In this document: positions 2-64,000 of the stretch, in pieces | Layout: every line of letters starts with the position of its first letter | Numbering within the stretch: position 1 is the stretch's first letter | IMG/VR virus record: IMGVR_UViG_3300037067_016734 | Strand: one strand, 5' to 3' | Length of the DNA: 64,000 nt | From: an uncultured virus (IMG/VR IMGVR_UViG_3300037067_016734) | Taxonomy: Duplodnaviria; Heunggongvirae; Uroviricota; Caudoviricetes | The notes under the pieces: model-generated | Database searches by the model: none | Told to the model about the DNA's origin: nothing | The model's input: the letters and a program-made list of their open reading frames with translations, nothing else | Position numbers and translations under genes: made by a program

Positions 2-940
2 TTTCCTAATCGATCAGTAGCGGTAGGAGCCGGAACTGACGCCTTACACCTAGCATATATTCTTGCAGACATCAAAGAGAACGATGAAGTCATTACTCCC
101 GTCTTCACCTGCCTAGCGACAAATATCCCCCTACTCTATCTTAAGGCCAAGGTTATCTTTGCAGACGTTAATCATAATAACTTAAATATAGATCCTCAAG
201 ATATAAAAAGAAAAATCACTTCTAAAACTAAAGCTATTGTTGTCGTTCATTACGGTGGTTGTCCTTGTAATATGGACGATATTCAAGAAATTGCAGACAA
301 ACATCACCTTAAGGTTATTGAAGATGCAGCACAGGCTCATGGAGTTTCTTACAAAAATAAAAAAATAGGAAGTATGAGTGATTTCACTTGCTTCTCTTTT
401 CAAGCTAACAAATTGATTACTACTATTGATGGAGGAATGTTAACGATTAAAGATCATAGCTTAGAAGATAGAGCAAAAAGATTAAGATGGTTCGGAATTG
501 ATCGAACGGGTAACTTTCAAGATCGCTGGCTAAACGATATTTCTGAAATTGGATTCAAATATCAAATGAACGATGTCTCTGCTTCGATTGGAATCGAACA
601 ATTAAAGCAAATAGATCAAATTATTGAACATCAAAAAAATCTTGCAAAGATATACAAAAACAGTTTAAGAAGGGTAAAAGAAATTGAGTACATCGGGGGA
701 CTATCATTATGCACTATTCTCGTAAAAAATAGAGAAAGGCTTATTGATAAATTAAAGACTTTTGGTATAGAAAGTAGTCCCGTTCATTTTCGGAACGATA
801 GGTATTCGATCTTTGGTAGCCGTAATTCAAGTTGTCCTAATATGGATCGATTAGAAAATCATTATTTAGTCTTACCGATGCACCCTCATCTGGTCGAAGA
901 TGATATAGAATATATCTGTAGCACCATTTTAAAGGGTTAA
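2..940 (+). CDS. DegT/DnrJ/EryC1/StrS-family PLP-dependent sugar aminotransferase (5' truncated by window)
   Basis: Frame open from position 2 (GTDALHLA); motifs IEDAAQAHG, FSFQANK (PLP Lys), GGML, GFKYQM, LPMHP. Confidence 0.93.
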   Translation, partial: FPNRSVAVGAGTDALHLAYILADIKENDEVITPVFTCLATNIPLLYLKAKVIFADVNHNNLNIDPQDIKRKITSKTKAIVVVHYGGCPCNMDDIQEIADKHHLKVIEDAAQAHGVSYKNKKIGSMSDFTCFSFQANKLITTIDGGMLTIKDHSLEDRAKRLRWFGIDRTGNFQDRWLNDISEIGFKYQMNDVSASIGIEQLKQIDQIIEHQKNLAKIYKNSLRRVKEIEYIGGLSLCTILVKNRERLIDKLKTFGIESSPVHFRNDRYSIFGSRNSSCPNMDRLENHYLVLPMHPHLVEDDIEYICSTILKG

Positions 941-941
941 A

Positions 942-1436
942 ATGTTAAAATTGCATCTAGGTTGTGGGGGAGAAATTCTCTCGGACTATACAAATATCGA
1001 CATACAACCACCCTATGATATATGCCATGATTTAAGACAACCTCTTCCGTATGACGATGATTCTGTTGATGAAATTTATTGTAGAGATGTTATACAATTA
1101 TTTTCTAGGGAAGAATGGAAAAAAATTAAAAAAGATTGGTATCGAGTACTCAAACCGGGTGGAAAGATAGAGTTGATTTGTTGGGACATTTATTATGTTA
1201 TATTTAATTTTATAACAAATCAAGATGGAGAAAGATGGTCTTATTGGCTCCAATGTCTTTATGCTGGACAAGAGAACGAATATGATTACTTTAAGAATGC
1301 GTTCAGTTGGATCAAATTAACGAATGATTTAAAAGAAGAAGGCTTTAGTCATTTTGAAAGACTCTTTGTTCCAAATTTTAACGAGGATTCTTATAGGTTT
1401 ATTCATTTGGTTGGGTATAAGATTAGAGAAAAGTGA
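942..1436 (+). CDS. Class I SAM-dependent methyltransferase-like protein
   Basis: LHLGCG motif I, LPYDDDSVDEI, RVLKPGG. Confidence 0.85.
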   Translation: MLKLHLGCGGEILSDYTNIDIQPPYDICHDLRQPLPYDDDSVDEIYCRDVIQLFSREEWKKIKKDWYRVLKPGGKIELICWDIYYVIFNFITNQDGERWSYWLQCLYAGQENEYDYFKNAFSWIKLTNDLKEEGFSHFERLFVPNFNEDSYRFIHLVGYKIREK

Positions 1437-2041
1437 AAATCTTAATTGGAACACCAATTCATCGTGTCAAAGATTATGCAGTAAAACGCTGGCTTGATTG
1501 TGTACGAAATTTAGATTATGATAACTTCGAATTGATGTTGGTAGACAATTCTCCTGATTTAGAATATCAAGAATATCTAAAATCGATAATTCCAGGATCA
1601 ATAAAATATTCTTTGGTTCATGTTGATATTAATTATACAGACCCCGAAGAAAGAGTTGCTATGGCTCGGGAAGAAATCCGAAGACAGGTTTTAGATAACG
1701 ATTTTGTTTTTTGGTTTAGTTGGGAGTGTGATGTTATGGCTCCTCCTGATGTTTTAAAAAAAATGTTAAAATATACAGATGAATTCAAAGTTGTACATCA
1801 TTTGTCTCCCGATAGAATTGATCCAGAGAATTCAATAGACAACTCTTTTGGTTTATCTTTAATTCACAGAGATGTTCTAGAAAAATTTCCTTTTGCTTTC
1901 CAATGGGGTAGAATAGATACAGCTATTCCGGCAAGATGGTGTGGTACAGATAGTTGGTTTAATAAAAGAATAATTAAAGAAGGCGGAACATTTATTCAAT
2001 TAGCCGGAGTAGTAAGACCATTGAAACATCTTAATGAGTAA
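1433..2041 (+). CDS. GT-A fold (GT2-like) glycosyltransferase
   Basis: ILIGTP start, LVDNS, ECD (DXD-like), FGLSLIHRDVL. Confidence 0.7.
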   Translation: MKILIGTPIHRVKDYAVKRWLDCVRNLDYDNFELMLVDNSPDLEYQEYLKSIIPGSIKYSLVHVDINYTDPEERVAMAREEIRRQVLDNDFVFWFSWECDVMAPPDVLKKMLKYTDEFKVVHHLSPDRIDPENSIDNSFGLSLIHRDVLEKFPFAFQWGRIDTAIPARWCGTDSWFNKRIIKEGGTFIQLAGVVRPLKHLNE

Positions 2042-2044
2042 AAT

Positions 2045-2695
2045 ATGGCAACAAGACTTTATATAGCTAATGATCCTCCACCTTTTACACCCGCCGTTGC
2101 AGGAACTTGGGGTGATGCCACAGCAACCATTCGCGGTTATTTGGGGGCTAAATTTGGTCTAGCTGCAACATCCGGTAAAACAGAAAGATCTAGTACAGCT
2201 ACCGCTGTACTTTTAGGAATATGGATTTCTGATGTTTTTAAAACAGATACTACTTTTGCAGTAACAGACACAATTTCTTTTTGTGCTGGTGCATTAGAAA
2301 GTGCTTCAGCGATGACAGCCACCTTTAGGTATCATATTTGGATTACAACCGGAAATACCAGTACGGTTAGAGGTACATTGGCAGCTAATGTAATCGGTAC
2401 AAAACCGTTCCCCACAACTGCCGCTGGTGTTGCGGAAGCAACAACTTCAGCCGCCGTAACAGCTTATAAAGGAGATCGTATTGTATTTGAGTTAGGCTAC
2501 TATGCCAATAATACATCTACGACATCTTATACTGGTACCATTAATTATGGAAACACAGGGGTTACAGATTTAACAGATACAAGTGCAAATGTAACAACTG
2601 AACCAGGATGGCTACAATTTTCTAATGATATCTTGTTTGGTCGTTACCCTCTTACTTCAGGAGCCTCTAACTTTCAATCCCCTGCAATATTTTAA
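2045..2695 (+). CDS. Thr/Ala/Gly-rich putative virion structural protein
   Basis: Composition typical of beta-rich virion proteins (AYKGDRIVFELG); no enzyme motif. Confidence 0.45.
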   Translation: MATRLYIANDPPPFTPAVAGTWGDATATIRGYLGAKFGLAATSGKTERSSTATAVLLGIWISDVFKTDTTFAVTDTISFCAGALESASAMTATFRYHIWITTGNTSTVRGTLAANVIGTKPFPTTAAGVAEATTSAAVTAYKGDRIVFELGYYANNTSTTSYTGTINYGNTGVTDLTDTSANVTTEPGWLQFSNDILFGRYPLTSGASNFQSPAIF

Positions 2696-2709
2696 AGGAG
2701 TTTTGTGGC

Positions 2710-5229
2710 ATGAAATCGGTTTCTATTATTATTCCTGTGTATAATCACTGGCAAGACGCAACCAAACCTTGTCTCGACTCTATCTTCAAATACACTGATT
2801 TGAATGATATAAATATTGTTGTAGTAGCTAACGGTTGCAATGACGATACATTAAAAGAAATTAAAAACTATGATGTAGATTGTCTTGAATTTTTTGAACC
2901 ATTAGGATATCCTAGAGCAATCAATGAAGGTGTCAGTTTTGTTTTAGATAATTATGATAGTGAATTTATCGTTCTCTTGAATAACGATACAGAAGTTCTC
3001 GAATCTCCCAAAAATGAATGGATTAATATGCTTCTCGAACCTTTTAAAGATTCAGAAGTAGGTATTACTGGATCATTAAAACTTAAATCCCCTGCTACTA
3101 AAGAAGATTTTATAGTATTCTTTTGTGCTATGATCCGAAGTGAGGTTTTTAGAGAAATTGGTTTGCTGGACGAATCTTTTGGTACCGGATATGGAGAAGA
3201 TTCAGATTTTTGTTTAAGGGCTAAACAAGAAGGATGGCTTCTAAAACAAATTCCTTATGAAGGCGCAATAGAGTATAAACCTGAATGTGGCTTCAGCGTT
3301 GGCCCTTTCCCTATGTGGCACCGAGCAGAAGCAACTGTACATGATAAAGAATTAGTTAAAAATTGGGACCAAATAAAAGAGAAGAATCTTTCTATACTTA
3401 GGAAAAAATATATGAATGATAAAAAATATAAAATTATGGTAGCTATTCCCACTAAAAATAGATATCATTCAACATTACCAATCACTCTATCTTCTATCTT
3501 ACATCAAACGGTTCTACCAGATCATATTCTTATTGCTGATGATAGCTCTGAAGAAGAATGGATTGATATAACAAAAGATCCCTTATATTCTACTTTATTT
3601 AACCTCATGGATAGACGTGGAGTTTCTTGCTATATTATCTATGGACCAAAACAAGGATTAGCTTATAATGATCAACTGTGTCAAAATTATGCTGTCGAAA
3701 ATAAATATGATCTCGTTCTTCGTTGTGATGACGACATTATTCTTGAACCTAATGTATTAGAAACTTTATTATCAAAGATAGAGGGGGGGATTGGGGCTGT
3801 CGGTTGTTCTGTTGTTATTCCGAATCAATATGTTGATGTAAAGGAATATGCTATTAAGGTAGAGGATGTAGGTAAATTACCAAATATTCAATGGGGAGAA
3901 AAGACTGAGGCTTGCGAAGTAGAACATCTGCATTGCTCGTTTTTGTATCGTCCAGGAATAGCTAATTACAACTTAGCTTTATCTCCTTATGCGATGACAG
4001 AAGAAACTCAGCTTACACATGAGATTTTTCGTAAGGGATACAAGATTTTATTTACGCCACAAGCTAGAATATGGCATTTAAAATCTAATGAAGGTGGATG
4101 CCGTACTTATGATCAAGCAGAAAAACAATTTCATGACTACAATGTATTTCAAGCCAAGCTTGCTGAATGGGGTAAATCTATTAATACGCCTTTCGAGGTC
4201 TATCTAGATAATGGAATTGGAGATCATATAATTTTCTCAACACTTATCCCTGAATTATTGAAAAAACATTCAAAGATTAGAATCGCTTGTTGTTATCCAA
4301 AAGTTTTTGAAGAATATATAGATAATAATAACGTAGAAATAATAAGTTTGGCAGTTTCCCCCGTAGATCCAGAAAGATATAGTATTTACCAATGGTGTAT
4401 TGATAATAATTGGAACAAACCATTAGAAGAAGCATTCCGGATTATGTATGGACTTGAAAATCAAAGTCTACCTATAGTTACAATTGTTACTCCAATGTTG
4501 GGACGAGAAAATTTCCAAAAGACTCTATCTCTTATCGTAAAGAATCAAACATATCCTAATATAGAACATCTAATCATAGAAGAAAAATGGTCATATAACA
4601 AGAAATCAACCGTCATCAAAAACGCCAGATATCAGCTTATCGATATTCCAGAAGGAGAAACTGTTTCTCTTGGATACAAATATCGCCTAGCAAATAAAAT
4701 TGCAAGCGGTGATATCATAGTCCGTATGGATAGCGATAACTATTATGGACCTGATTATGTCGAACAAATGGTCAATCTTTTGATCAATAATAAAGCTCTA
4801 TATGGTTGCAAAACTAAAACATATATTTACGATATCACTACTCAAGAATACATTCCTCATACCAATTCCGGAGCTTGGGTTTATTATAGAACGGCAATTC
4901 CTGATGAATGGATTGTAGACGATAAAAATAAAGCTGAAGATGTAGAATTATGGACTAATGCTCGTCAATATGGTGAATACGTAGAAAATGATTCCTTCGG
5001 AAACCATCTAGCTATTCGACATTATACTAAAGAAAAAGTCAAACAAAATATCGATATCAATCGACAAGTTTTTGGAACCTACATGACACAAGACGATTTT
5101 GTAAAAGAAGGTGGTCATGTTTCCGCCCATGAACCAGACGGATTTTTAAAAGATAATAATCTAGAATTGCTTTCAAGTATTGTAAAAGATGAAGATATAT
5201 TAAATTTCTACAGGAGCTTTAAAGTATGA
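2710..5229 (+). CDS. Multidomain glycosyltransferase (GT2-GT2-GT9 N-half-GT2)
   Basis: Three GT2 starts (SIIIPVYN..LNND; VAIPTKNR..CDDD; TIVTPM..MDSD) plus GIGDHI GT9-like motif near 4210. Confidence 0.85.
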   Translation: MKSVSIIIPVYNHWQDATKPCLDSIFKYTDLNDINIVVVANGCNDDTLKEIKNYDVDCLEFFEPLGYPRAINEGVSFVLDNYDSEFIVLLNNDTEVLESPKNEWINMLLEPFKDSEVGITGSLKLKSPATKEDFIVFFCAMIRSEVFREIGLLDESFGTGYGEDSDFCLRAKQEGWLLKQIPYEGAIEYKPECGFSVGPFPMWHRAEATVHDKELVKNWDQIKEKNLSILRKKYMNDKKYKIMVAIPTKNRYHSTLPITLSSILHQTVLPDHILIADDSSEEEWIDITKDPLYSTLFNLMDRRGVSCYIIYGPKQGLAYNDQLCQNYAVENKYDLVLRCDDDIILEPNVLETLLSKIEGGIGAVGCSVVIPNQYVDVKEYAIKVEDVGKLPNIQWGEKTEACEVEHLHCSFLYRPGIANYNLALSPYAMTEETQLTHEIFRKGYKILFTPQARIWHLKSNEGGCRTYDQAEKQFHDYNVFQAKLAEWGKSINTPFEVYLDNGIGDHIIFSTLIPELLKKHSKIRIACCYPKVFEEYIDNNNVEIISLAVSPVDPERYSIYQWCIDNNWNKPLEEAFRIMYGLENQSLPIVTIVTPMLGRENFQKTLSLIVKNQTYPNIEHLIIEEKWSYNKKSTVIKNARYQLIDIPEGETVSLGYKYRLANKIASGDIIVRMDSDNYYGPDYVEQMVNLLINNKALYGCKTKTYIYDITTQEYIPHTNSGAWVYYRTAIPDEWIVDDKNKAEDVELWTNARQYGEYVENDSFGNHLAIRHYTKEKVKQNIDINRQVFGTYMTQDDFVKEGGHVSAHEPDGFLKDNNLELLSSIVKDEDILNFYRSFKV

Positions 5230-5729
5230 CTCATGTTAAAAGTCCTAATATCGTAATCGCTCCATATTCAGTTCAACTTCCTTCTGGGCAATTAAACCCT
5301 AAAAATTATCCATATTGGAGGGAAGTAATAAAAGGAGTAAATACGTTTGATTCTTATTTTAATTATTTAAGTGAATATCATTTTATTCAAATCGGCAGAG
5401 AAGGAGAAGAACAACTATGTGAAGACTTTAGAAAAGATCTATCGTTTAAAGAGATAGAGCTATTACTTAAAAATTCATTCACTTTTGTAACGGTTGATAG
5501 TTTCCTACAACATCTTGCTTGGAAAATTGGAAAACGAGGAATTGTTATTTTTTCTCAATCAGATCCAGAAATTTTTGGACATAAAGAAAATATTAATTTA
5601 TTAAAAGATCGTTCATATCTACGTCCCGGACGAGAACAATTTTGGAAATGGGATCAATGCGAGTGGAACGAAGATGCCTTTGTTTCACCAGACGAAGTAA
5701 TTAAAGCAATTTGGGAATTTAAAATATAG
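5226..5729 (+). CDS. GT9 (heptosyltransferase-like) C-terminal domain protein
   Basis: IVIAP..KNYPYW, IQIG, FVTVDSFLQHLA motifs. Confidence 0.75.
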   Translation: MTHVKSPNIVIAPYSVQLPSGQLNPKNYPYWREVIKGVNTFDSYFNYLSEYHFIQIGREGEEQLCEDFRKDLSFKEIELLLKNSFTFVTVDSFLQHLAWKIGKRGIVIFSQSDPEIFGHKENINLLKDRSYLRPGREQFWKWDQCEWNEDAFVSPDEVIKAIWEFKI

Positions 5730-5738: not shown

Positions 5739-5978
5739 ATGGCAGAATATATAGATGGACTAATCAAAAGGATCGAAGAGAAAGCCGAATTATACGAAAG
5801 ATTAACCTCGGCTCTATCTCGTACACTGGAAGAAAAAGATCTTATAAACCAAAAAGAATTAGCTTTAAAAGAAGAGCTAATTAAGGTCGGTTCAGCGATA
5901 AGAACTTTAAGAAATGAGTTCCACGAGTTCACTGGCGCAGATTTTGAATTTTCTTCAAAAGAAGCCAAAAAGGATTAA
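5739..5978 (+). CDS. Coiled-coil hypothetical protein
   Basis: AGGAG RBS; heptad-like Glu/Lys/Leu sequence. Confidence 0.6.
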   Translation: MAEYIDGLIKRIEEKAELYERLTSALSRTLEEKDLINQKELALKEELIKVGSAIRTLRNEFHEFTGADFEFSSKEAKKD

Positions 5979-6050: not shown

Positions 6051-7055
6051 ATGGCATATTCAAATATTACAGTTACAAACGCTGCTCTGTTTAATGGCGC
6101 TACGAGTTTGAAAAGCGTTTTAAATAATGCGGGATGGACTGTTACGAGTGGAGGTTCCCCTACTCTATCTTTTACTGTAACTCCCGGAGGCACACTTTAT
6201 TATAAGTTCGATAGACTTGCCGCCGATAGTCCGACATTTAAGGTTTACATATCACAGGATAGCGGATCTACTTATGTAAAATATGGAACCCTTACTCTAT
6301 GTCCTGGTGCTACTTATACGGGGAACATTGATTTACATAGTTTCTCTTATACTAGCCCTGATACGTTCAATCTTGTGTTTGGTGCCTTGGTTGATGGAAA
6401 ATATTATTATCAATTAGTTTGTTTAGGTTATATTGCAAGATTTGATACTAACGATTCAAATGCTTGGGGTTTATATATTAGTGGTGCCCCTGAAGCAATG
6501 GGTAAAAACTTTCTTTCTCAAGGTATTTCTTATGGAACACTTGAAACATTCTTTATGAGATCAGTGGATAAATCTTCTTCAACCTCAAAGAGTATTATTC
6601 AGTTTAAATTCACAGACATTCAAGATTACACTGATTCGGTTGGTATGGGTTACAACGGTCTTGGTACTATTACAAACGTTCTTTCGGCAAGCAACACCAA
6701 CTTCTCAGGAAACTCTCTTAGAGATATTTATGAAACCGAAAAGATCGCCGCTAGACGTTTTTGCCCTATCGGTGTTTATAAGGAATATCTTAACACTTTA
6801 TTTGATGGACAGGGATTACGTGGAACTTTGAGAAACGTCTATTCTGTCCATCAATTTTGTTATAATGATAGTGCAGGAAATATCATTCCTCATGTTATCG
6901 GCAAACAGGCTTTAGCTGCTACTTTTAACTGGACTGCACGTGGAAGCGCCATTTGGAGTTCAGAAAAAGATTGGTTAGTTGTTCCTCTTTATAACAATGT
7001 CACAAACTACGATATCTATAACGGTTTACATGTTGTAGCTCTTCCAAAGGTATAA
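6051..7055 (+). CDS. Putative virion structural protein
   Basis: AAGGA RBS; rich in Gly/Ser/Thr/Asn/Tyr. Confidence 0.45.
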   Translation: MAYSNITVTNAALFNGATSLKSVLNNAGWTVTSGGSPTLSFTVTPGGTLYYKFDRLAADSPTFKVYISQDSGSTYVKYGTLTLCPGATYTGNIDLHSFSYTSPDTFNLVFGALVDGKYYYQLVCLGYIARFDTNDSNAWGLYISGAPEAMGKNFLSQGISYGTLETFFMRSVDKSSSTSKSIIQFKFTDIQDYTDSVGMGYNGLGTITNVLSASNTNFSGNSLRDIYETEKIAARRFCPIGVYKEYLNTLFDGQGLRGTLRNVYSVHQFCYNDSAGNIIPHVIGKQALAATFNWTARGSAIWSSEKDWLVVPLYNNVTNYDIYNGLHVVALPKV

Positions 7056-7058: not shown

Positions 7059-7703
7059 ATGAAATATATTTCACAAGAAGAAAGACTTAAAATTGCTAAT
7101 CAGAAGTTTGGAGAAAAGGTTAACCAACTGTATGAAATCAGTCAGCCTCCAAAAATAGAGCAAGCAGAACCTCTTACAAAATCTGTTACATCAGAAGAGG
7201 TCTTATCTCATCTACTTTCAGTATGTTTAGAAGTATCAAAAGATGATATTGAAAGATATATTGATAGGGGTGTGCAGTCGTTCCAGAAAAGCGCAACCAT
7301 TCTCGGTAACGCCAATTTTGATGTAAAACGTAGACGTTCCAATCTTACGGAGCTAATCAAAAAGGCAGCATCTTTTCCGAATCCATCAGAACGAATGAAC
7401 CCTTATGAGATTCAAATGCTAATGAATTTGGACCGCGATATTGCAGAAGCAATCGCTAACAATGGAAATCTGATCAAGAGTGATTTCTTAGATAGAGTCC
7501 GTGATTATTTTAACGGAAACAAGAACGATAAAGGTATTAACGTCTTCGTTCCTCGTCTAACCTCTATCTCTAAATCTATCAAAGATGATTTTATAACAGA
7601 ACTATATAAGTCAGCCTTGCTTTCAGCAATGGAAAAGATTGTATGGTCTAATCAAGGTCAATTCCTAGATCAAGGGGGGGAAAGGGATCTCCCTTTCGAG
7701 TAA
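7059..7703 (+). CDS. Hypothetical protein; probable N-terminal part of a frameshifted gene 7059-8881
   Basis: Repeated xxKS motifs; ends just after G7 tract 7674-7680. Confidence 0.6.
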   Translation: MKYISQEERLKIANQKFGEKVNQLYEISQPPKIEQAEPLTKSVTSEEVLSHLLSVCLEVSKDDIERYIDRGVQSFQKSATILGNANFDVKRRRSNLTELIKKAASFPNPSERMNPYEIQMLMNLDRDIAEAIANNGNLIKSDFLDRVRDYFNGNKNDKGINVFVPRLTSISKSIKDDFITELYKSALLSAMEKIVWSNQGQFLDQGGERDLPFE

Positions 7704-7786: not shown

Positions 7787-8881
7787 ATGGGTTTTAGAAA
7801 GCCTAAAGTACCCCAAGCTCCTCCAAAACTTGCCAGCGCCCAATTAGGGCCGGATATGGAAGATGTCGCTCAGACTCCAAGAAAGACTCTTGGTAATTTC
7901 CCCCCTTTAGACCTTAAAGATATGGATTATGATACGAGAAGTGTAATAGGGCGTCAAGAGGCGGCTGAAAGAGCTAGGACATCTTTTGCTAAAGCTATTA
8001 TTACCGATACGATCACCAAGGCTAGAAAGGCTTCTACAGAGAGACTTAGTGAGCCGATTCTGAAGACTGTCATGGAAGACTTATTAAATAGAGCAAACAA
8101 TCCTACCACGCCGAGGGACTTAGCAGCCATTATTTCAGATATTGCACAAAGAGGTAAATCTTCTAAGTTTATTTCAATTGCCACAGAAAGAGGTTTGCCT
8201 GCCGGTCTATTGAGAGGTAACAAACAAACGGTTCCTGCGATTAATCCTGGCAAGATGGTAGATCCAGAAGCCGCAGAAAGCTCTATCTCTGGAAATATAA
8301 GTCCTTCTGATCTTCCCTCACCCATTCTATCAAAACAGAAGAGAAGCGGTAAACTACATACTCCTGTAGAAGTAAAATTAATATCTCTTATTAATAATAT
8401 CAATGCTCAATCTCCTGCTCATACTCAAGAAACAGCACAAACCTATGCGACTACCCCTCAGAAGGCGCATGGCTCTACTTTAACGAAAGATTATGGAGTA
8501 GACGAAGAAGGCCATTCAAGAATGATGGCTGAGAAACAACTAATAGATAGAGTCTCAAGAGATCCCCAAGAATTATCCTTTTTACAAGCAATTTCAAAGA
8601 AGTTGGGGACCGGAATGAGAGGGAACGAGTATGTTCCTATGGTTTCAGGACAAGATCATGATTTAATTATAAGAATTCCTTCTCATGGAATGGAATTCAA
8701 ACACACAAGACAACATCAAGATCCATATGGAAGAACGATTCCTGCTTCGGTTTATTCTTCAGTAGATTCATACCTACCTATTCCGAGGTCTACGTTGCCT
8801 GGACAACCTCAAAAAGAACAGGAATATCATCACTATAGAAGGGGTTTGTCTCAAACTCCCGAAGAGTTTCTAAACAGCTAA
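7787..8881 (+). CDS. Hypothetical protein; probable C-terminal part of gene 7059-8881
   Basis: Frame open from 7652; ATG at 7787 has no SD. Confidence 0.6.
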   Translation: MGFRKPKVPQAPPKLASAQLGPDMEDVAQTPRKTLGNFPPLDLKDMDYDTRSVIGRQEAAERARTSFAKAIITDTITKARKASTERLSEPILKTVMEDLLNRANNPTTPRDLAAIISDIAQRGKSSKFISIATERGLPAGLLRGNKQTVPAINPGKMVDPEAAESSISGNISPSDLPSPILSKQKRSGKLHTPVEVKLISLINNINAQSPAHTQETAQTYATTPQKAHGSTLTKDYGVDEEGHSRMMAEKQLIDRVSRDPQELSFLQAISKKLGTGMRGNEYVPMVSGQDHDLIIRIPSHGMEFKHTRQHQDPYGRTIPASVYSSVDSYLPIPRSTLPGQPQKEQEYHHYRRGLSQTPEEFLNS

Positions 8882-10753: not shown

Positions 10754-11266
10754 TTAAGAAAAATCATGCTCCAATCTTTCAGTCTTCATTAAACTCTGTG
10801 CAATAGAGGCTGCTTTAGATGTAATATAGAAAAGATTTCTTAGGAAGTTTTTTACGGCTTTCATGTCGGCTGTATCCGCCTCCATCTTGTCTTTAGCCTT
10901 TTCTGCGCTTCCTCTGGCGGCTTGAGTATTGGGCCACATCTGATATTGGTGCTTTGAAAACTCACCACTAAACATAACGTATAGGGTTTGAATAGAATGC
11001 ATGTGAGAAATGATCCGTCTAGCCTTATCTTCTGCTGATCCAGGATTTAAAGCCTGCATGTCGTCAAGATCCTTAATAATGGCCTTAACAACCTCTGGAA
11101 CCTCATATCCAATTTGTTTAAAAAGATATTCTGCTCCTTTTAATGAAACCGTAGAGGAATCCCCTTTCGCTATCTCTCCAAACATTTCCTTAAAACAATC
11201 TGGATCAATATTAAATTCTCCGGACTCTATCTCATCATGAACTTCATTATCTGAGATTGCTTCCAT
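10754..11266 (-). CDS. Helical hypothetical protein
   Basis: 170-aa ORF with GGAG RBS. Confidence 0.6.
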   Translation of the reverse strand: MEAISDNEVHDEIESGEFNIDPDCFKEMFGEIAKGDSSTVSLKGAEYLFKQIGYEVPEVVKAIIKDLDDMQALNPGSAEDKARRIISHMHSIQTLYVMFSGEFSKHQYQMWPNTQAARGSAEKAKDKMEADTADMKAVKNFLRNLFYITSKAASIAQSLMKTERLEHDFS

Positions 11267-38671: not shown

Positions 38672-38672
38672 C

Positions 38673-43683: not shown

Positions 43684-43694
43684 TAAACCTTAAT

Positions 43695-51566: not shown

Positions 51567-51738
51567 AATATGGACATCATACCAGATAGCCAATTAGGTA
51601 GAAACATGGAAATTGGTCTACTTATAAAAAAGATAGAGATTGCGTGTGGACAATATGGTGCAGGATGTGTAGAGTTGAGTGTGGTTACAGATTTAGCCAA
51701 ACAATTGATTGAATTAACAACATAAAAAAGGATTTAAA

Positions 51739-54650: not shown

Positions 54651-55259
54651 TCAGGGGATGATGATTTGTCTTTGTCCACTTGCCCTCATGCGCTCCATTA
54701 CAAATCTATCTACAAATTGTTTTCCTGTGATATCTAAAATATCACGATTAGATCCTCTTACTGCTAACCAAGGAATATGAATTAGACTTGCAGGATAAGG
54801 TAGACTTAAGAGATCGCGTCTAACTTCTGGAATACAGAAAACGGCAGGGTTCTCTAAAGATCCCAATGAGTGATCTTTCTTTAATAGATTAGCGAAAAAT
54901 CCAAAAATTAACATATTACTACCGGCTCTAAGATCAAATTTTTCGTCTCCTCTATCTCCTAAAGCTCTTTCCATGATTTTTCCATAATCTTCATTAAAAC
55001 TATTACCTTCTGTAGTCATCTTTCTAGCTAATTCATCCATCATTTTTGTAGATAAATCAAGATGCATTCCTTGTAATAGATTCCCTTCAATATAGCTTTT
55101 AGCGATAGTAGGATTACCAACTCGATCTAACATAGCATAACCAAAAGTTAAATCTAGGATTCCCATATCCCAAGCGTCATCATCCAAAATTAAATCAATT
55201 GCACCAACAGCACTGGCACCTTGATATGAACCATCTAATGTACTAACTCTTCCCTTCAT
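54651..55259 (-). CDS. Hypothetical protein
   Basis: 202-aa ORF. Confidence 0.6.
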   Translation of the reverse strand: MKGRVSTLDGSYQGASAVGAIDLILDDDAWDMGILDLTFGYAMLDRVGNPTIAKSYIEGNLLQGMHLDLSTKMMDELARKMTTEGNSFNEDYGKIMERALGDRGDEKFDLRAGSNMLIFGFFANLLKKDHSLGSLENPAVFCIPEVRRDLLSLPYPASLIHIPWLAVRGSNRDILDITGKQFVDRFVMERMRASGQRQIIIP

Positions 55260-55554: not shown

Positions 55555-55626
55555 TTTGAGTTTTCTCCTATATGTTTTTTAGGAGCGGCATCTACCATTG
55601 CGATTGAAAATCGCGCTGCTGCCGCT
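55523..55626 (-). ncRNA. Predicted omegaRNA 3' scaffold plus guide, copy 2
   Basis: Covarying stems against copy 1; guide CAACAAAAAGCTAGAGAAAT from 55542. Confidence 0.7.
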
Positions 55627-56679
55627 TCCCCGCGCTGAAGGATGTTCTTTGCCGCATTGATATCGGCGTGTTCTCTGTGGCTACACGAACATCGAAAAAC
55701 ATCTCCGACACGGTTCTTTTTGTCGGCTTTTCCACACGCGGAACAGGTGATGCTTGTTTGATAAGGACTAACGCTTCTAAAAGCAACACGGTTGTCTTCA
55801 CAGAAGCGTTGAATCCTCGACAAAGCATAGCCTTGATTCCAACTGCCGATCAAACAACGAGTCCGTTTTTGAACTCGTCTCTGTTTTGTGCCTGAAGAGA
55901 TTCCCTTCAGACGTTCAACATACAAAGTTTTGGCTTCACTCGGAAGCGATTTGATTGTCCGGTTCATTTCATTGCGGAGATGGATTGCTTGTCCTCTACG
56001 TCCCTTTGAACCCGGTCTTTTGCGAAGCATTTTTTCAATGATTGGTTTGATGTCTCCTAACAATTCTCCTTCCGAAGTTGCAAGGAAATGATTGATTCCA
56101 AGATCAATCCCGATTGCTCTTCCCTCTTCTCTTTTTGTTCCCGTTTCAATCTCGAAAGAGAATTGAACTTTGTCGGGAGAAAGAAGGCAGGCTTGATTCA
56201 TGCGTCCGCGTTTTTGTAGGTTCTTGAAATGTTTATGAGATTTGATGGGGAGATCAAAGATTAAACCATCACCGATGCTTTTAAGATGCAACCAATAATC
56301 AAAATAAGTCGTTTCTTCTGGAAATTGCAATTCCGCGAATTGATTCATATCCCTTAAACGAATCGATTTTCCAGAATGTTTTGGTTTGGAATATTCGCAT
56401 TTTAAGCTTTTAGCGGCATTTTTTGTTGCTTTGATCATGTAGATTGCTTCGTTGGCGGCTTCCCGTTTCAGTCCAGCGGACAACCAAGAATCGATTTTAA
56501 TTTTTGTGATTCGTTTTTCAGGAACGTCTTTCCAAAATCGATCTATAAATAAATTCACCAATCGGCTATATTCCGCAATCACAATTCGCACCAAATCCCG
56601 CTTTTCCTGAGAAGCAAATTTTAGAGAACAAGTTGTGGAACGAATTGTTTTCACAAAAACATTGTACCCGTTTTAGAAA
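55543..56679 (-). mobile_element. Non-autonomous IS200/IS605-family (TnpB-only) element, copy 2
   Basis: Follows TTAAT (56684-56680), ends TCTAC; removal restores an in-frame ORF. Confidence 0.88.
55551..56654 (-). CDS. tnpB: TnpB RNA-guided nuclease
   Basis: Same RuvC and Zn-finger motifs as 43720; close paralog. Confidence 0.94.
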   Translation of the reverse strand: MKTIRSTTCSLKFASQEKRDLVRIVIAEYSRLVNLFIDRFWKDVPEKRITKIKIDSWLSAGLKREAANEAIYMIKATKNAAKSLKCEYSKPKHSGKSIRLRDMNQFAELQFPEETTYFDYWLHLKSIGDGLIFDLPIKSHKHFKNLQKRGRMNQACLLSPDKVQFSFEIETGTKREEGRAIGIDLGINHFLATSEGELLGDIKPIIEKMLRKRPGSKGRRGQAIHLRNEMNRTIKSLPSEAKTLYVERLKGISSGTKQRRVQKRTRCLIGSWNQGYALSRIQRFCEDNRVAFRSVSPYQTSITCSACGKADKKNRVGDVFRCSCSHREHADINAAKNILQRGEAAAARFSIAMVDAAPKKHIGENSK

Positions 56680-57327
56680 ATTAAAATGAGTTACTATTTT
56701 TTGTTTCATTGGCTTGTATAATCCCTGTTTCAAGATAAAACTTAACAATATCTTCTTCTGAAATCTTAAAAATGATATTCAAGATAGAGGTTGCGGTTCC
56801 GAGGAGATATTTTAGATCATCTGTGAGTGGTGTTAAAAACACTTGTTCGTCATCCTTGACGGAAAGAATGGCTTCTTTATAGCCGTACTCATTTATCAAG
56901 GTTTGGATTTTTTCAATGAATTCGTTGAGTTTGTTTGTGTTCTCGATATTTGCTTCGTTTTCTGCCATAATATACTCCAAAATTTGATTAAGAGAGACGA
57001 TCCTCTCTACAATGTTTTACCCATTCGATAAAATTTTTGTAAAGCGAAACCAATATACCGGATAATGTGGTATAGTAAATTGTCGTAAATTTAGCTTAAA
57101 AGGTGCTTATATGGACGAAAAAAAGCCTACCATCAATCAACTTATTTATACCGGACGTATTAACGAAGAAGTTCGGTATATGACTTATTATCCTTGTTAT
57201 GTTCGAGATATTTCTTCAGACAAAACAAGATTAATCATAGAATTTCATTCGTATAATCATACATATTCTTGGGAAGTCCCTGCCAGTTCCGTTCTACGTA
57301 CTATAAACTAATTCGGGAGAATATGAA

Positions 57328-57986: not shown

Positions 57987-58619
57987 ATGAAAAGATCCTT
58001 TTTTACCATCACGCACGGTGGAACAATTGTAACGGAAAATTTCGGAATCCCCTCGATTGCTGATATTGCATTTTGTTTGAACAAAATTAATAGATATAAC
58101 GGTTCGAGTGATCAGGCGATTAGTGTTGCATCTCATTCTTTATTAGTATGGGCTTTTGCGAAAGATAGAGGGTGGGACTGCAAGCTTCAAATTGGCTCTC
58201 TTTTTCATGATGCAGCCGAAGCCGTAATTGGAGATATTCCGTCACCCCTAAAAACTGAATACTTTGATAAATTTGAAAAGAAGATTATCAATAGAATTAT
58301 GTATAGTATTGGGGTACCAGAATTAACAGAAGAAGAAGATAAGGCTGTCAATGTAATCGATAAAGAAGTTTTATCCCTTGAGGTTCATAGTGGTTTTGGA
58401 CCAAATGAATTGAAATTGTTTGTCCCGCGTTTTAATTATGAATCTGAATTTGGACATATTTATGATGAAGATTATATGAGTAAATATCCCAACGTTTTAG
58501 AAATTTTAGAAGAAGTATATCATTATAACAAAGGTCTCTCATGTGAAAATAGATCACATGAAATTGTCTTCAAAAACACCGCTCTATCTTTAATAGCACA
58601 ATATCATAATTTGGAGTAA
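57987..58619 (+). CDS. HD-domain nucleotide phosphohydrolase (YfdR/YfbR-like)
   Basis: RYNG, SVASHS, HDAAEA..GDIPSPLK. Confidence 0.88.
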   Translation: MKRSFFTITHGGTIVTENFGIPSIADIAFCLNKINRYNGSSDQAISVASHSLLVWAFAKDRGWDCKLQIGSLFHDAAEAVIGDIPSPLKTEYFDKFEKKIINRIMYSIGVPELTEEEDKAVNVIDKEVLSLEVHSGFGPNELKLFVPRFNYESEFGHIYDEDYMSKYPNVLEILEEVYHYNKGLSCENRSHEIVFKNTALSLIAQYHNLE

Positions 58620-58884: not shown

Positions 58885-59832
58885 ATGAAGACAGAAGAGG
58901 ATTTAATTACAGAAATAAATAAAAAATATGGAAAAGGAACCATTAAAAGTCTAGATGATCTAGTAGATGCAGAAAGAATATCTACTGGTTCTTTGAAGAT
59001 AGATAATCTTATTGGAGGCGGAATCCCAAGAGGACATATGACTGAGATTTATGGTACAGAATACTCAGGCAAAACTACTCTAAGTCTTCAGACTATAGCC
59101 AATGCTCAGAGACAAGGTATAAGGTGTCTTTATATATTAGTAGAACAAGTCCTAGACAAAAACTATGCTCTATCTTTAGGTGTAAATCAAAATCCTGATA
59201 ATCAATTAATAATAACTCAACCTAATTGCGGAGAAGACGTTATCGGGATAGCAAAGTCGTTTTGTGAAAGTGGAACAATTGGAGTTATTGTCTTGGATTC
59301 CGTAGCTGCCATGACATCTCATCAAGAGTTAGAAGGAAACATTGGGGATGCTAATATGGGAGTAAGGGCCAGAATCATGAATCAGGCTGTTAGAGTATTA
59401 ATGAAGCCCGTAGTCGATAATAATGTTGCAATGATCTTTGTTAATCAAATCCGTCAAAACCTATCCGGTTACGGAGGTAAGTCTATTCCGGGAGGAAAGG
59501 CGTTGGGTTATGGATGCACTATTATCTTGGATTTAACTAGGGTTAAAAAAGAAGAAGGGATTATTGAGGTAAAGGCGACAGTAGAGAAGAACAAAATCGG
59601 TATAGCCCCCAAAACTACTTTAATTAATGTCTTCTTCAACAAAGGAACCTCTATCTATCGTGAAATGGTAGATGTTGGTTTAGAAAAGAAGCTCTGGATA
59701 CAAGGAGGAGCATGGATTTCTGGAATTTCAGATCAAAAAATACAAGGAGTAGATAAAGCTACTGCATATTTTGAAGAGTTAGAAAAATCAGATAATAAGT
59801 CGTTTCAAGAATATTTGGAGAAGTTAAAGTAG
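58885..59832 (+). CDS. recA: RecA recombinase
   Basis: STGS, GGIPRG, GTEYSGKTT, DSVAA, NQIR, GGKAL, KNK..P. Confidence 0.95.
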   Translation: MKTEEDLITEINKKYGKGTIKSLDDLVDAERISTGSLKIDNLIGGGIPRGHMTEIYGTEYSGKTTLSLQTIANAQRQGIRCLYILVEQVLDKNYALSLGVNQNPDNQLIITQPNCGEDVIGIAKSFCESGTIGVIVLDSVAAMTSHQELEGNIGDANMGVRARIMNQAVRVLMKPVVDNNVAMIFVNQIRQNLSGYGGKSIPGGKALGYGCTIILDLTRVKKEEGIIEVKATVEKNKIGIAPKTTLINVFFNKGTSIYREMVDVGLEKKLWIQGGAWISGISDQKIQGVDKATAYFEELEKSDNKSFQEYLEKLK

Positions 59833-59965: not shown

Positions 59966-61054
59966 ATGAAAAAAGGTTTAAATTTTGATGATGTCTTGCT
60001 TTTCCCTCGTTTTTCCGATATTAGTTCTAGAACCGAACCGATTGTGAAAAGTAAAATCGTTGAAGGAATAGAGATAGAGTGTCCAATAATTCCCGCCAAT
60101 ATGGATTGCATCGCTTCTCCTGCGATGCATGACCTTATGTTTAAAATAAATAATAATAAAACGGGAAACTTTATTTATCATAGATTTATAGAGATGAAAG
60201 CCTTAAAACCGGGAGATTTTGTTACTATTGGTTTGAGAGGTTTTCCTTCTGACGAATGGAACGTTAGAACATTGGCGATAAACAATCATGATTGTCATTT
60301 TGTGATTGATATCGCTCACGCTCACTCTAAACAGGTTTTTGATGCTTTAGCCTTTTTAAAGAAAAAATATACTAAAAAAATTATTGTTGGAAACGTAGGT
60401 ACAAAAGAAGCAGCGCGTGATTTCTGTATGGCGGGAGTAGACGGATTAAAGATAGGTATAGGCTCAGGACATCCCTGTTTAACCAGAAACGTAACGGGTT
60501 GTGGAGTACCACAAATTACGGCTATCAAATGGGTATCCAAGATAGCGCATCAATTTGGAGTAACCACTATTGCAGATGGAGGGATCGGATCTTCTGATGA
60601 TGCAGCGAAAGCATTGGCGGCAGGAGCCGATTCGATAATGATAGGATCAATGCTTGCAGGTACCGATGAAGCCGCAGGAAGATGGGTTAATAAATACGGG
60701 AATCCGTTAGTATATTACAAACATATTTCTCCTTCTCAACCAGATGAGCATATAGAAATCAATGATCATCCAGAATATTTAGAAGAATATATAAAACAAT
60801 ATGGAACAAAGGGTGTCTATAGAGAATATTGGGGTCAGAGTAGTGCCGACTATCAAAAAGTTTGGTTCGGGGGAATCAAACCGGGAATAGTCCCAGAAGG
60901 CGAGACTCTATCTATTCCTTATAGTGGACCAGCAGAAGATACTATATATAAATTAGCTGCCGGATTAAAGTCCTCTATGTCTTATGTAGGAGCAAGAGAT
61001 CTTGATGAATTTCGTAGAAAAGCTGAGTTTATTAAAGTTAACAAAATAAAATAG
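59966..61054 (+). CDS. IMP dehydrogenase / GMP reductase family protein (no CBS domains)
   Basis: FDDVLL, ANMD, DIAHAH, GIGSGHPCLTR, ADGG, PEG. Confidence 0.9.
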   Translation: MKKGLNFDDVLLFPRFSDISSRTEPIVKSKIVEGIEIECPIIPANMDCIASPAMHDLMFKINNNKTGNFIYHRFIEMKALKPGDFVTIGLRGFPSDEWNVRTLAINNHDCHFVIDIAHAHSKQVFDALAFLKKKYTKKIIVGNVGTKEAARDFCMAGVDGLKIGIGSGHPCLTRNVTGCGVPQITAIKWVSKIAHQFGVTTIADGGIGSSDDAAKALAAGADSIMIGSMLAGTDEAAGRWVNKYGNPLVYYKHISPSQPDEHIEINDHPEYLEEYIKQYGTKGVYREYWGQSSADYQKVWFGGIKPGIVPEGETLSIPYSGPAEDTIYKLAAGLKSSMSYVGARDLDEFRRKAEFIKVNKIK

Positions 61055-62269: not shown

Positions 62270-63208
62270 ATGTTAATTACCTTTTTATATGATGTTGAAC
62301 TTGACGTATATGGAGATACTATCCAAAGAGCTATTTTGATGCCTCTTTATCCTGATGCTACGTTTAAACCGCAAGTTTTTACTGTCGGACGGCCTATTTT
62401 ACTGAATTCTAAAAATATTAGTGTTAGAGTAGATAAAAAAATAAATCAACAAATCCTTGATAACATAGTTCGCGGAATATATGAAGGATATCCCGGAATA
62501 AATGAAGCATATCCTAATGAAATAATAGCTTGTGTAGAGCAAGGTTTTACTTCTTCGACTAAAAGGGTCGAGGAGATAAAAGAAGCCTATAAAACAGCGC
62601 CTTTAGTTCCCATTCGTTCTAACTATGCTTGTGAGAGTAATTATTCTTTTGGAGATGACGATCAAGTGAGACGTTATAAAAAGAATTTAACAAACCCTTG
62701 TTTGACTAAGGAGTTTGCTTATCCTTCTCAGGATTCTTCTAACTATCTTCAAGAGAGAGATAGAGTGAAGTTGATTGTGAAGGATTTTATCAAGGAATCG
62801 CTTTTCGAAGCTCTATCTTTGATTGATGATTCAAAAGCGTTCAATGCAACTACTTTAAGAGGGATGTTTATTACAAACCTAAGAAGAAAGCTTTGTACGA
62901 TTGGAATTTACTCTAGTACTAATTTACTAGATGTCGATAATTGGTTGACGGCAGGGATTTGGAATGGTAGTGCAAATAATCTAAGGGTAGGTACTTTTAT
63001 GTTTTCTCCGGACGAAATTAATGCGAAAATCGGATTGGGGACAGAGATTCCCTTCGAACAAGGGGTTCAATCAGAGATCCAATCCATTCACCATGATTTG
63101 ATAGCGATGCGCTCTATCTTTGTAGATAAGGTTGAAGAGGAGGTAGTGAAGTTCAACAACATAGCAGATCGAGTCGAAAAGTTGATTTTGGACAATCAGG
63201 ATTTATAA
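62270..63208 (+). CDS. Hypothetical protein
   Basis: 312-aa ORF with GAGG RBS. Confidence 0.65.
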   Translation: MLITFLYDVELDVYGDTIQRAILMPLYPDATFKPQVFTVGRPILLNSKNISVRVDKKINQQILDNIVRGIYEGYPGINEAYPNEIIACVEQGFTSSTKRVEEIKEAYKTAPLVPIRSNYACESNYSFGDDDQVRRYKKNLTNPCLTKEFAYPSQDSSNYLQERDRVKLIVKDFIKESLFEALSLIDDSKAFNATTLRGMFITNLRRKLCTIGIYSSTNLLDVDNWLTAGIWNGSANNLRVGTFMFSPDEINAKIGLGTEIPFEQGVQSEIQSIHHDLIAMRSIFVDKVEEEVVKFNNIADRVEKLILDNQDL

Positions 63209-63231
63209 AATTAATTAAGGAGTATTGTATT

Positions 63232-63579
63232 ATGTCAGATGACGGTAATGTAATTGGTAGACTGAGCGAAATGCTTGGTTTCAATGCGGCTTCTAAGCCC
63301 GAGAGCGGTATCGCGGGTTCCATTCTTTCCGCTCTTGATGATATCAAGAAGGAAAGGACAGAGAAGGCGAAGGAGGCTGCAAAGGCTCTGATTCTTCAGG
63401 CTCTCACTGAAGCCGAGGGTTTAGATAAGCTGAAGAAGGACTTTGACGCTGCTTTCAACAAGCGGAACAAGGCGCTTCAGAAGCTGGTTAATCGTATCCA
63501 GGCTTATTTTGCAGGCAAGGAGCCTGAGCCAGAGAAGCCGGACAACGAACCGGACAAGCCAGAGTCGGATAACTCTTAA
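63232..63579 (+). CDS. Helical hypothetical protein, probably highly expressed
   Basis: AAGGAG RBS; G-ending Lys/Glu codons unlike neighbouring genes. Confidence 0.7.
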   Translation: MSDDGNVIGRLSEMLGFNAASKPESGIAGSILSALDDIKKERTEKAKEAAKALILQALTEAEGLDKLKKDFDAAFNKRNKALQKLVNRIQAYFAGKEPEPEKPDNEPDKPESDNS

Positions 63580-63589
63580 AGGATAGTGC

Positions 63590-63618
63590 ATTGTGGGGCG
63601 GAAAATCCGCCCCACAAT
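63590..63618. other. Perfect 13-bp intergenic hairpin without U tract
   Basis: ATTGTGGGGCGGA-AAA-TCCGCCCCACAAT. Confidence 0.8.
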
Positions 63619-63639
63619 CTAAATAAGGAGAAGAATTAT

Positions 63640-64000
63640 ATGTACGATCAAGAATTCACAGAAAAAATGATTAAAAACACAGGAAGAAGTCTTACTGAGA
63701 TTTCTAAGCTAGTGAACGAGAAGCCTTCTCTTGTCGATGTTAAGTTTGACGTACATCATTTAACTCCCGTTGTTTATCACGCTAAAGAAAAAGTTGTTCA
63801 ATTGGTTGCTAAAGATAGAGTGATGTTTATGCATCCAAACGCGCTTTATCAGCTTTACGGAAAATCTCATTTTCCGGCTTCCGCTGAATTTCGTAACAAC
63901 ATTGAACTTGATACGATGCAAAGAGTTATTAATGATCTTTGGAAGAATGTTATTTGTAGGGTTCCTAAGAGAGGGGAAAAGAAGAAGCTTTTACTTAGGA
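63640..64000 (+). CDS. Hypothetical protein (3' truncated)
   Basis: AAGGAG RBS; MYDQEFTEK..., open to the window end. Confidence 0.6.
   Translation, partial: MYDQEFTEKMIKNTGRSLTEISKLVNEKPSLVDVKFDVHHLTPVVYHAKEKVVQLVAKDRVMFMHPNALYQLYGKSHFPASAEFRNNIELDTMQRVINDLWKNVICRVPKRGEKKKLLLR

Follow-up and report, generated by a model that had tools for sequence, protein, structure and literature searches.

A lineage-private, direction-specific DNA word at high density on both strands of an uncultured jumbo-phage genome

In this work we analysed a 64,000-nucleotide stretch of DNA from an uncultured virus, IMG/VR record IMGVR_UViG_3300037067_016734 (called the window throughout, meaning the whole of this stretch), and the octamer AGATAGAG, which is iterated along it. 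Our results show that AGATAGAG is a lineage-private, direction-specific DNA word that selection has brought to a near-saturating density on both strands. As its alignment with the word of the nearest relative shows, AGATAGAG is the local dialect of a longer signal, in which a TAGAG core is followed on the 3' side by about 10 nt rich in G/T.

The window contains 84 exact copies of AGATAGAG, 39 on the plus strand and 45 on the minus strand, or about one per 760 bases, and no other 8-mer ranks higher by count. A previous reading made from the letters alone (the sequence-only reading) had arrived at these figures by hand as a minimum, and the 14 positions that it quoted are all exact copies. Its estimate of two to three copies from base composition was also right, as a Markov model of order 0 gave 2.5 copies and 100 dinucleotide shuffles gave a mean of 3.13 (sd 1.74, maximum 7), none of them reaching 84. 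The expectation rose to 5.4 and 11.1 copies with Markov models of orders 3 and 4, and to 30 and 69 with orders 5 and 6; these higher orders soak up part of the excess because any real word forces them to do so. A null model that had been called for earlier, namely one respecting codons and dipeptides, left the enrichment in place: shuffling synonymous codons, which preserves all proteins, yielded 11.7 +/- 2.5 copies when done within genes, thus also keeping the codon usage of each gene, and 10.5 +/- 2.4 when codons came from one global pool, with no more than 19 copies in either set of 300 shuffles. This null is conservative because the shuffled pools include the codons contributed by AGATAGAG itself. 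Likewise, variants of the word with a single mismatch, whose equal abundance would have spoken against a specific signal, were not enriched; they numbered 0 to 17 copies, the commonest 17 and most of them 0 to 9, and the heptamer GATAGAG occurred 85 times, preceded by A in 84. The word is non-palindromic, its reverse complement being CTCTATCT, and both orientations were present in each 8-kb bin of the window, in agreement with the lack of strand polarity noticed before. Taken together, the synonymous null and the variant counts support the original idea of a dispersed cis-signal under DNA-level selection.

The relation of the word to the coding sequence leads to the same point. With 103 greedy open reading frame (ORF) calls, 94.7% of the window is coding; 81 of the 84 copies fell within ORFs and three between them, so that the intergenic share was neither raised nor lowered. 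The earlier remark that copies lie mostly inside genes, in several frames and on both strands, was borne out, as AGATAGAG occupies all five stop-free frames. In the sense direction, 19 copies encode K/E/Q-I-E (frame 1) and 20 encode x-D-R-x (frame 2), while the antisense frames read L-Y-L (7 copies), x-L-S (24) and x-S-I-x (11); the sixth frame, AGA-TAG, is unusable as it contains a stop. The word is present at 81 (51%) of the 158 places where the protein sequence is compatible with it, whereas codon usage would predict 7.8, and the rare codons CTC, CTA, ATA and GAG are employed in writing it. Moreover, the 158 permissive peptides were themselves in excess with respect to the 92.5 +/- 9.2 obtained by shuffling amino acids within proteins (maximum 119 of 200). 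This excess, together with the 51% uptake, therefore reveals a DNA-level pressure strong enough to alter proteins; AGATAGAG is selected as DNA and not for the protein it encodes.

No longer repeat was found around AGATAGAG, although its flanks showed asymmetric base preferences, with an extended form in the window, AGATAGAGCTTG. Positions -3 to -1 were 50% A, and the base immediately following the word was seldom A (7/84). At positions +10 to +16 the G/T content rose to 64.3%, compared with 50.0 +/- 2.1% at matched random positions (maximum 57.5% of 2000), and this tail was found in copies of both orientations relative to genes (60% in sense and 68% in antisense copies). The spacing of the copies was evaluated by holding their positions and permuting their strand labels. 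Under this test the coefficient of variation (CV) of the per-strand spacing was 0.70 versus 0.86 permuted (P=0.0056), same-strand gaps shorter than 400 bp were 9 versus 15.2 (P=0.0065) and same-strand neighbours were 32 versus 41.3 (P=0.023); seven of the eight pairs less than 100 bp apart had their members on opposite strands. The mean same-strand gap was 1431-1667 bp. That each orientation is spaced separately points to a reader working on one strand or in one direction, that is, to a word that is read directionally. Minus/plus pairs about 50 bp apart were considered as parts of a larger composite element, an idea that was discarded as their spacers and flanks are unrelated.

The window belongs to a contig of about 73 kb. 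It has no DNA-level relatives among named phages, and no close relative was found by any single protein; tblastn against named phages produced matches under 60% only. Its DnaE-type DNA polymerase III alpha (23406..26711, minus strand), which we used to search for relatives, was 44-51% identical to six metagenomic polymerases, encoded on contigs of up to 221 kb, and a metagenome scan with a polymerase profile gave 80 loci, all at 35% identity or less and dominated by bacterial DnaE. The nearest relative was G005, a 202,677-bp viral contig estimated as 91% complete, whose polymerase is one of these six and 50% identical to that of the window; 41 of the 103 ORFs of the window have homologues in G005, in the same order. 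Portal, capsid and baseplate genes in this collinear contig, and phage replication genes in the window, identify both as phage.

G005 contains only 12 copies of AGATAGAG, the same number as the reversed-word control (12). In its place the word TAGAGCC was found 186 times (77 plus, 109 minus) versus 16 for the control (z 38.9), where the synonymous shuffle led to 48.7 copies (maximum 60 of 100). As in the window, TAGAGCC fills all usable frames and its mismatch neighbours are rare. When both words were aligned on the pentamer TAGAG, the window was seen to fix AGA on the 5' side and G005 to fix CC on the 3' side, and a G/T-rich tail of about 10 nt lies 3' of the pentamer in both genomes; the extended form in G005, TAGAGCCTTG, had 47 copies versus 0.3 expected. 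The per-strand spacing was again even, with a CV of 0.69 versus 0.87 permuted (0 of 5000 permutations), 13 same-strand gaps below 400 bp versus 21.5 (P=0.0066) and a mean same-strand gap of about 1.9-2.6 kb. The density was uniform, 15-23 copies per 20 kb, with both strands represented in each 20-kb bin. By a rough estimate, two such words would overlap by five letters by chance with a probability of about 2%. AGATAGAG and TAGAGCC are two dialects of one signal. In addition, the palindrome GATATC was in excess in G005 (638 versus 401 expected, z 11.8), and such an excess of a restriction-type palindrome is unusual for a phage; alongside it, CGATATCG stood out in locus L001.

Site turnover was evaluated on 31.5 kb of aligned orthologous coding sequence, where 46 sites of the window and 38 of G005 could be compared. 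None of the 46 coincided in register; no sites of the two genomes lay within 12 nt of each other (control 0.7) and a single pair was less than 50 nt apart (control 2.8). At the aligned place of the partner genome, not even the TAGAG core alone was usually present (2/46 and 0/38 cases), and the positions of the word were less conserved than the background (4.4 versus 5.3 identical of 10 nt). Every site is a gain specific to its lineage, and what selection keeps is the density and the even per-strand coverage, not particular sites. The sequence-only reading had expected a genuine signal to keep its sites at synonymous positions in related phages. No site is conserved in the relative; nevertheless the signal stands, because G005 uses a related but different word at positions of its own. 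The same DNA also turns up in a groundwater run, which is a possible source, and in runs from landfill belonging to two further studies, with no RNA run among those listed. Fragments from four runs compared with positions 12001-32000 were near-identical, with 16 variant places, none of them in AGATAGAG, a comparison with no power on site conservation.

In a word-strength screen of 105 loci of at least 15 kb, words of comparable strength were found in only a few: the highly iterated palindrome HIP1 in a cyanobacterial-type locus, TAGAGCC (L001) and TTAATAGC (L036/L037). The cyanobacterial-type viral contig of L005 (record G007), with 96 copies of the HIP1 word GCGATCGC in 22.7 kb, served as a positive control for the screen. 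Like AGATAGAG, HIP1 is a hyper-abundant octamer in genes, in this case of cyanobacteria; unlike it, HIP1 is a palindrome of cellular genomes, while AGATAGAG is asymmetric and private to a virus. TTAATAGC is spread genome-wide in the two jumbo phages of L036/L037, records G004 (242,420 bp) and G028 (167,645 bp), with 244 and 175 copies versus 5 and 5 for the reversed-word control. It is degenerate as TTAAYAGC, position 5 being T or C (244/106), and also shows same-strand repulsion (P=0.0004-0.044 in G004); strand labels are therefore non-random given the positions in three genomes, the window, G005 and G004. The polymerase of this group is about 32% identical to that of the window, and L036 and L037, being 99.3% identical, are too close for a conservation test.

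With respect to AGATAGAG itself, its density was at most 0.27 per kb in all of the first 160 loci, and a pair-pattern scan of viral contigs (at least 119 loci) showed no convincing second carrier among the matches listed. The best of these were G001, with 10 copies in 24 kb (24,028 bp), and G003, with 15 in 24.8 kb (24,801 bp). Both were rejected, since their reversed-word controls were equally raised (9 and 12), other words reached a similar z-score, and they have no proteins in common with the window. The context of the word in G001 was often GAGATAGAG. We judge these counts, which are not fully explained, to be a product of the pattern-search selection or of composition. The literature matches listed for the raw letters of AGATAGAG were primers, miRNAs and the like.

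Orientation-specific spacing, dense coverage of each strand and a drifting word call for a reader with those properties. Among the several roles listed by the sequence-only reading, a Chi-like one continues to be the best candidate; our preferred, although tentative, interpretation is that AGATAGAG is a Chi-like signal controlling a strand-tracking helicase-nuclease. Such an enzyme would track one strand from a DNA end, recognise AGATAGAG in one orientation and, once the word is recognised, switch from degradation to DNA preservation and recombination. It could be a helicase-nuclease of the host, or else the phage's own set, comprising an Mre11/SbcD-like phosphoesterase (38628..39758, plus strand), a Rad50/SbcC-like ATPase (40404..42119, plus), a PD-(D/E)XK nuclease of the RecB/Cas4 type (42125..43009, plus) and a RecA/UvsX-like recombinase (58885..59832, plus). 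A break or free end anywhere in the phage DNA would be rescued no more than about 1.5 kb away on either side, phage DNA would thereby be distinguished from DNA without the word, and the G/T-rich tail might be the site of strand cutting and recombinase loading.

Chi, like AGATAGAG, is an asymmetric word of about 8 nt that is read in one orientation; AGATAGAG is non-palindromic and its strand labels are non-random. Phages P1, LLS and MD8 are reportedly rich in Chi, and we know of no report on the same-strand spacing of Chi. As described for LLS, this phage has 23 Chi, one per 1.86 kb, versus 0.85 expected, an enrichment of about 27-fold as in the window, and the DNA around its recently acquired modules is free of Chi (PMC12315714). 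In P1, 50 Chi are distributed across both strands of 94.8 kb (bioRxiv 10.1101/2021.07.08.451572). Like the copies of AGATAGAG, those of Chi lie inside genes. The words of related lineages share a core in both systems, the Chi of E. coli and Pseudomonas having a common core and differing at one end (PMC12315714; bioRxiv 10.1101/2021.07.08.451572). A determinant in the 3' flank of Chi was placed at nt 4-7, where RecBCD cuts (PMC5041463). Both the window and G005 show a core combined with a 3'-flank preference, as expected of Chi, although the preferred bases are unlike those of E. coli.

Several points weigh against a Chi-like signal. Known Chi sequences are G- or GT-rich, unlike AGATAGAG, and no helicase-nuclease of the RecBCD/AddAB type was detected in the window or among 102 ORFs of G005. 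Compared with Chi-rich phages, the word here has a density 2.5 times higher, and its distribution is uniform, while Chi in LLS and P1 is concentrated towards the genome ends (PMC12315714; bioRxiv 10.1101/2021.07.08.451572). According to a survey of lambdoid phages, those rich in Chi are typically without a recombination module or RecBCD inhibitor of their own (PMC12315714); the window phage has RecA, Rad52-like, Mre11/Rad50-like and PD-(D/E)XK genes, and G005 also has RuvC. The absence of the word from the TnpB elements described below says little (P=0.06). Finally, one copy every 1.4-1.7 kb on each strand would suit lagging-strand priming just as well.

This last point introduces the main rival interpretation, which is possible but to our judgement doubtful: AGATAGAG would be a start signal at which the AEP-family primase of the phage (30843..31796, plus strand), working with the DnaB-like replicative helicase (36518..37726, plus) and DnaE, begins lagging-strand primers and nowhere else. 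TAGAG would be the initiation site and the G/T-rich tail the primer-coding stretch, so that the replisome is kept on phage DNA. Like a primase site, the word would be read in one orientation on a single-stranded template, and if priming is restricted to it, a copy is therefore needed on each strand every Okazaki-fragment length. Okazaki fragments measure 1-2 kb, and the per-strand spacing of the window (1.4-1.7 kb) and of G005 (1.9-2.6 kb) is of that order and evener than chance, with both strands covered everywhere. Many primases start their primers with AG; the bases adjoining the word carry no clear purine-start signature. No primase other than the AEP enzyme was detected in either the window or G005 (48.5% identity between the two; G005 lacks a DnaG zinc ribbon), and among 50 viral records bearing DnaE its homologue was found only in G005, the other genome with a TAGAG word. 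This association is confounded by phylogeny, and G004 and G028, which lack a homologue of this primase and have a DnaG-type enzyme instead, possess an equally strong private word. T7 primase recognises GTC and DnaG sites are trinucleotides; known primase sites are mostly of 3 nt, and none is known to be enriched genome-wide. We know of no case of primase sites shaping genome composition, nor was one found in the literature, and it is hard to see what a phage would gain from depending on a rare 8-mer, except where self-discrimination is important. A precedent for a long site exists in the AEP PrimPol NrS-1, described as reading the 8-nt template word TTTGGTTA through a helix-bundle domain, although it also uses GTG and its 8-mer is thought to serve origin-type initiation and not dispersed priming (PMC8718748). 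An AlphaFold model of the AEP primase of the window, made without an alignment, reached a predicted local distance difference test (pLDDT) score of only 37 and was not used.

It is unlikely that AGATAGAG is a double-stranded mark of self, bound by a phage protein that selects, condenses, partitions or packages phage DNA in the manner of the DNA uptake sequences (DUS) of Neisseriaceae, which also have dialects, or the uptake signal sequences (USS) of Pasteurellaceae; these are dense signatures of own DNA read by the uptake machinery. The resemblance lies in a frequency of about one per kb on both strands, the mostly intragenic location, the lineage dialects around a conserved core and the extended flank. 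However, a strand-blind binder predicts evenness of all copies, and only the per-strand spacing is clearly even; it also predicts random strand labels, in conflict with the predominance of opposite strands in close pairs. Packaging needs one site per headful, not per kb, and no candidate binder emerged from the Pfam scans. DUS and USS belong to naturally competent bacteria, while here we deal with a phage in which no competence genes were seen; neither does AGATAGAG form terminator hairpins (3/84 copies between ORFs). The uptake-like role suggested earlier has no plausible reader in a phage, and Pfam scans of the window and G005 showed no pilin or competence family.

Of the proteins that had been singled out as possible readers, the ParB-like ORF 51739-52374 has no Pfam match at E<=0.01 and no homologue in G005. 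The ORF 35022-35339, named XRE, does have a homologue in G005 and lacks a Pfam match. The end-processing and recombination proteins of the window, the SbcCD-like genes included, are conserved in G005.

We consider it quite improbable that the word is the target of a modification or nicking enzyme of the phage, such as a Mom-family protein or an HNH nickase, acting in replication, repair or anti-defence. G005 encodes a Mom-family protein (L288:4322-5173; PF25680, E 4e-13) whose gene adjoins the capsid gene and an ORF of the LAGLIDADG type, a sign that the clade may modify its DNA bases; HNH genes and large sets of sugar and methyl-transfer genes exist in both genomes, and an asymmetric site would require separate copies on each strand. 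Being a target, though, explains neither the 27-fold enrichment nor the bent proteins, Mom-type sites are short and degenerate, and no DNA methyltransferase family was detected in Pfam scans of the window or G005. As regards the orienting sequences KOPS and SRS, read one-way by the DNA translocases FtsK and SpoIIIE, they are purine-rich asymmetric 8-mers too, but show a strong replichore skew, whereas here both orientations occupy every 8-kb (window) or 20-kb (G005) bin. The notion that the word has no function and results from codon or dipeptide usage, from other words being avoided or from a mutational bias that writes it, is largely refuted: two of the encoded codon pairs do use common codons (GAT-AGA) and the Markov models of orders 5 and 6 do take up part of the excess, yet the null preserving proteins and codons gives 11 copies versus 84, rare codons and all five open frames are used, and neither a compositional tail nor an even spacing on each strand would be expected from a mutational bias.

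Whether Chi-like or primase-like in action, the reader might be encoded by the virus, a proposition to which we give nearly, but not quite, an even chance. AGATAGAG would then act as a private genome password, a rare oriented word at about one per kb per strand, read by the virus's own strand-tracking enzyme (primase or nuclease) whose action it limits to self DNA; word and reader would co-evolve into dialects, all sites being rewritten within the divergence of two collinear genomes. TTAAYAGC, from an unrelated group of jumbo phages, would be a further instance of the same principle. Chi and DUS/USS are established examples of genome-wide oriented recognition words; what is new here is a variant private to a virus, which has dialects, has replaced all its sites between relatives and keeps same-strand copies apart. 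Searches of the accessible open literature, including a 2026 review on jumbo phages, gave no account of such a private word iterated in these phages.

Bacteria are known to have genome-wide recognition words, among them Chi, DUS/USS and KOPS, and a few phages borrow the Chi of their host. Here a jumbo phage and its relative each carry a private, related word, with sites fully turned over between them and with a density that recodes half of the permissive codon contexts and changes protein sequences. If the reader is viral, this would represent a layer of self-recognition in virus replication or recombination that is absent from the literature searched; if it is the Chi enzyme of the host, the word would provide the Chi of an uncultured, possibly Patescibacteria-type, host and link the phage to it. 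Private words are also of practical use: they mark lineages strongly when phage contigs are binned, offer a handle on the reader through co-variation, and constrain codon usage in a way that gene predictors and selection tests ignore.

The sequence-only reading had seen no copy of the word in DNA presumed to have arrived recently. Indeed, AGATAGAG is absent from both TnpB elements (copy 1, 43690..44765, plus strand, GC 0.42; copy 2, 55609..56684, minus strand, 90% identical to copy 1) and from positions 19011-21449 of the ribonucleotide reductase (RNR) gene, but the evidence is weak. None of the two protein-compatible places in copy 1, or of the four permissive places in both copies together, holds the word, with P(0) = 0.06. 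The longest word-free stretch (32397..35775, plus strand), carrying a sigma factor, a Rad52-like protein and small ORFs, uses 0/5 compatible places; this gap, at 3387 bp the largest, would be nothing unusual among 84 points placed at random. The word-free TnpB elements and the sigma/Rad52 block agree with a slow acquisition of the word by resident DNA, an argument that is weak alone. The elements are inverted copies of 1076 nt of IS605-family OrfB with a Cas12f-like TNB domain, and their GC content of 0.42 contrasts with 0.34 for the genome. AGATAGAG was rejected as their target site; copies of the word lie 45 nt outside copy 1 and 98 nt outside copy 2. The closest outside relative of TnpB, 70% identical, is on a 5-kb contig, and a 44% match exists in a Patescibacteria metagenome-assembled genome; these matches, and a single weak Nocardia match in a genome scan, were too weak to name a host.

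The copies of AGATAGAG are given here in groups, with the strand of the word. ORF 2-940 contains 134..141 (-, antisense) and 466..473 (+, sense); ORF 942-1436 contains 1165..1172 (+, sense); and ORF 2710-5229 contains 2778..2785, 3485..3492 and 4523..4530 (all -, antisense) together with 3776..3783 (+, sense). These are followed by 5452..5459 (+, sense in ORF 5226-5729), 5812..5819 (-, antisense in ORF 5739-5978), 6163..6170 (-, antisense in ORF 6051-7055), 7490..7497 (+, sense) and 7562..7569 (-, antisense) in ORF 7059-7703, and 8281..8288 (-, antisense) and 8545..8552 (+, sense) in ORF 7787-8881. Among genes of the minus strand, sense copies lie at 11225..11232 (-, ORF 10754-11266), 12162..12169 (-, ORF 11827-12288), 13696..13703 (-, ORF 13534-14013), 16006..16013 (-, ORF 15751-16035) and 18375..18382 (-, ORF 18060-18662), and antisense copies at 13153..13160 (+, ORF 12982-13317), 14274..14281 (+, ORF 14228-14617) and 15539..15546 (+, ORF 14975-15568). 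Close minus/plus pairs are formed by 11637..11644 (-) with 11686..11693 (+), 16704..16711 (-) with 16755..16762 (+), 30974..30981 (-) with 31024..31031 (+), the latter two in the AEP primase gene, and 49972..49979 (-) with 50032..50039 (+), and a plus/minus pair by 62758..62765 (+) with 62811..62818 (-). The RNR gene contains the pair 18982..18989 (-) and 19003..19010 (+), as well as 21450..21457 (-). The only same-strand pair closer than 100 bp is 46367..46374 (-) with 46453..46460 (-).

In the polymerase gene, sense copies are found at 25472..25479 and 26477..26484 (both -) and antisense copies at 24105..24112 and 26234..26241 (both +), with 26713..26720 (-) at an ORF boundary; the recA gene has 59168..59175 and 59649..59656 (both -). 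Two copies, 48199..48206 and 51631..51638 (both +), lie between ORFs, and those 45 nt outside TnpB copy 1, of whose target it is not part, and 98 nt outside copy 2 are 43638..43645 and 56782..56789 (both +). The remaining plus-strand copies are at 22497..22504, 22617..22624, 22852..22859, 35990..35997, 37831..37838, 39025..39032, 39472..39479, 39946..39953, 41042..41049, 45045..45052, 47082..47089, 49130..49137, 50792..50799, 52522..52529, 53303..53310, 58163..58170, 60072..60079 and 63813..63820, and the remaining minus-strand copies at 26825..26832, 29223..29230, 30636..30643, 31986..31993, 32389..32396, 35776..35783, 37993..38000, 40705..40712, 42162..42169, 43505..43512, 47238..47245, 50185..50192, 51133..51140, 53611..53618, 54950..54957, 58582..58589, 60906..60913 and 63112..63119.

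Besides the genes already mentioned, the window encodes a clamp-loader/RuvB-like ATPase, a class I RNR whose insert carries an endonuclease, nucleotide-metabolism enzymes and sugar-transfer genes. In the ORF of the RNR large subunit (18637-21636, 999 aa), residues 401-491 resemble an endonuclease (phrog_4645), as would fit an intein, and the best tblastn segment between this protein and the RNR of G005 spans only 377 aa. Next to the polymerase, in the region 26715-30423, lies a gene for a 520-aa protein with weak hints of VWA and metallopeptidase domains, accompanied by a MoxR-type AAA ATPase (28942-30423); both are conserved in G005. This 520-aa protein was considered as an HNH reader of the word and rejected on account of these hints, of its MoxR neighbour and of the lack of a PDB relative. 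Sugar-nucleotide and glycosyltransferase genes are located at positions 2-11266 of the window and at 70-140 kb of G005, and comprise DegT aminotransferase, GT2, GT9, capsule-synthesis-like, nucleoside triphosphate (NTP) transferase and phosphomutase types. Lastly, positions 12525-13016 of the window contain three direct repeats of 64 nt, 72-81% identical and spaced by 205-223 bp, at the ends of three small tandem ORFs of the minus strand, which probably constitute a small family of paralogous genes.

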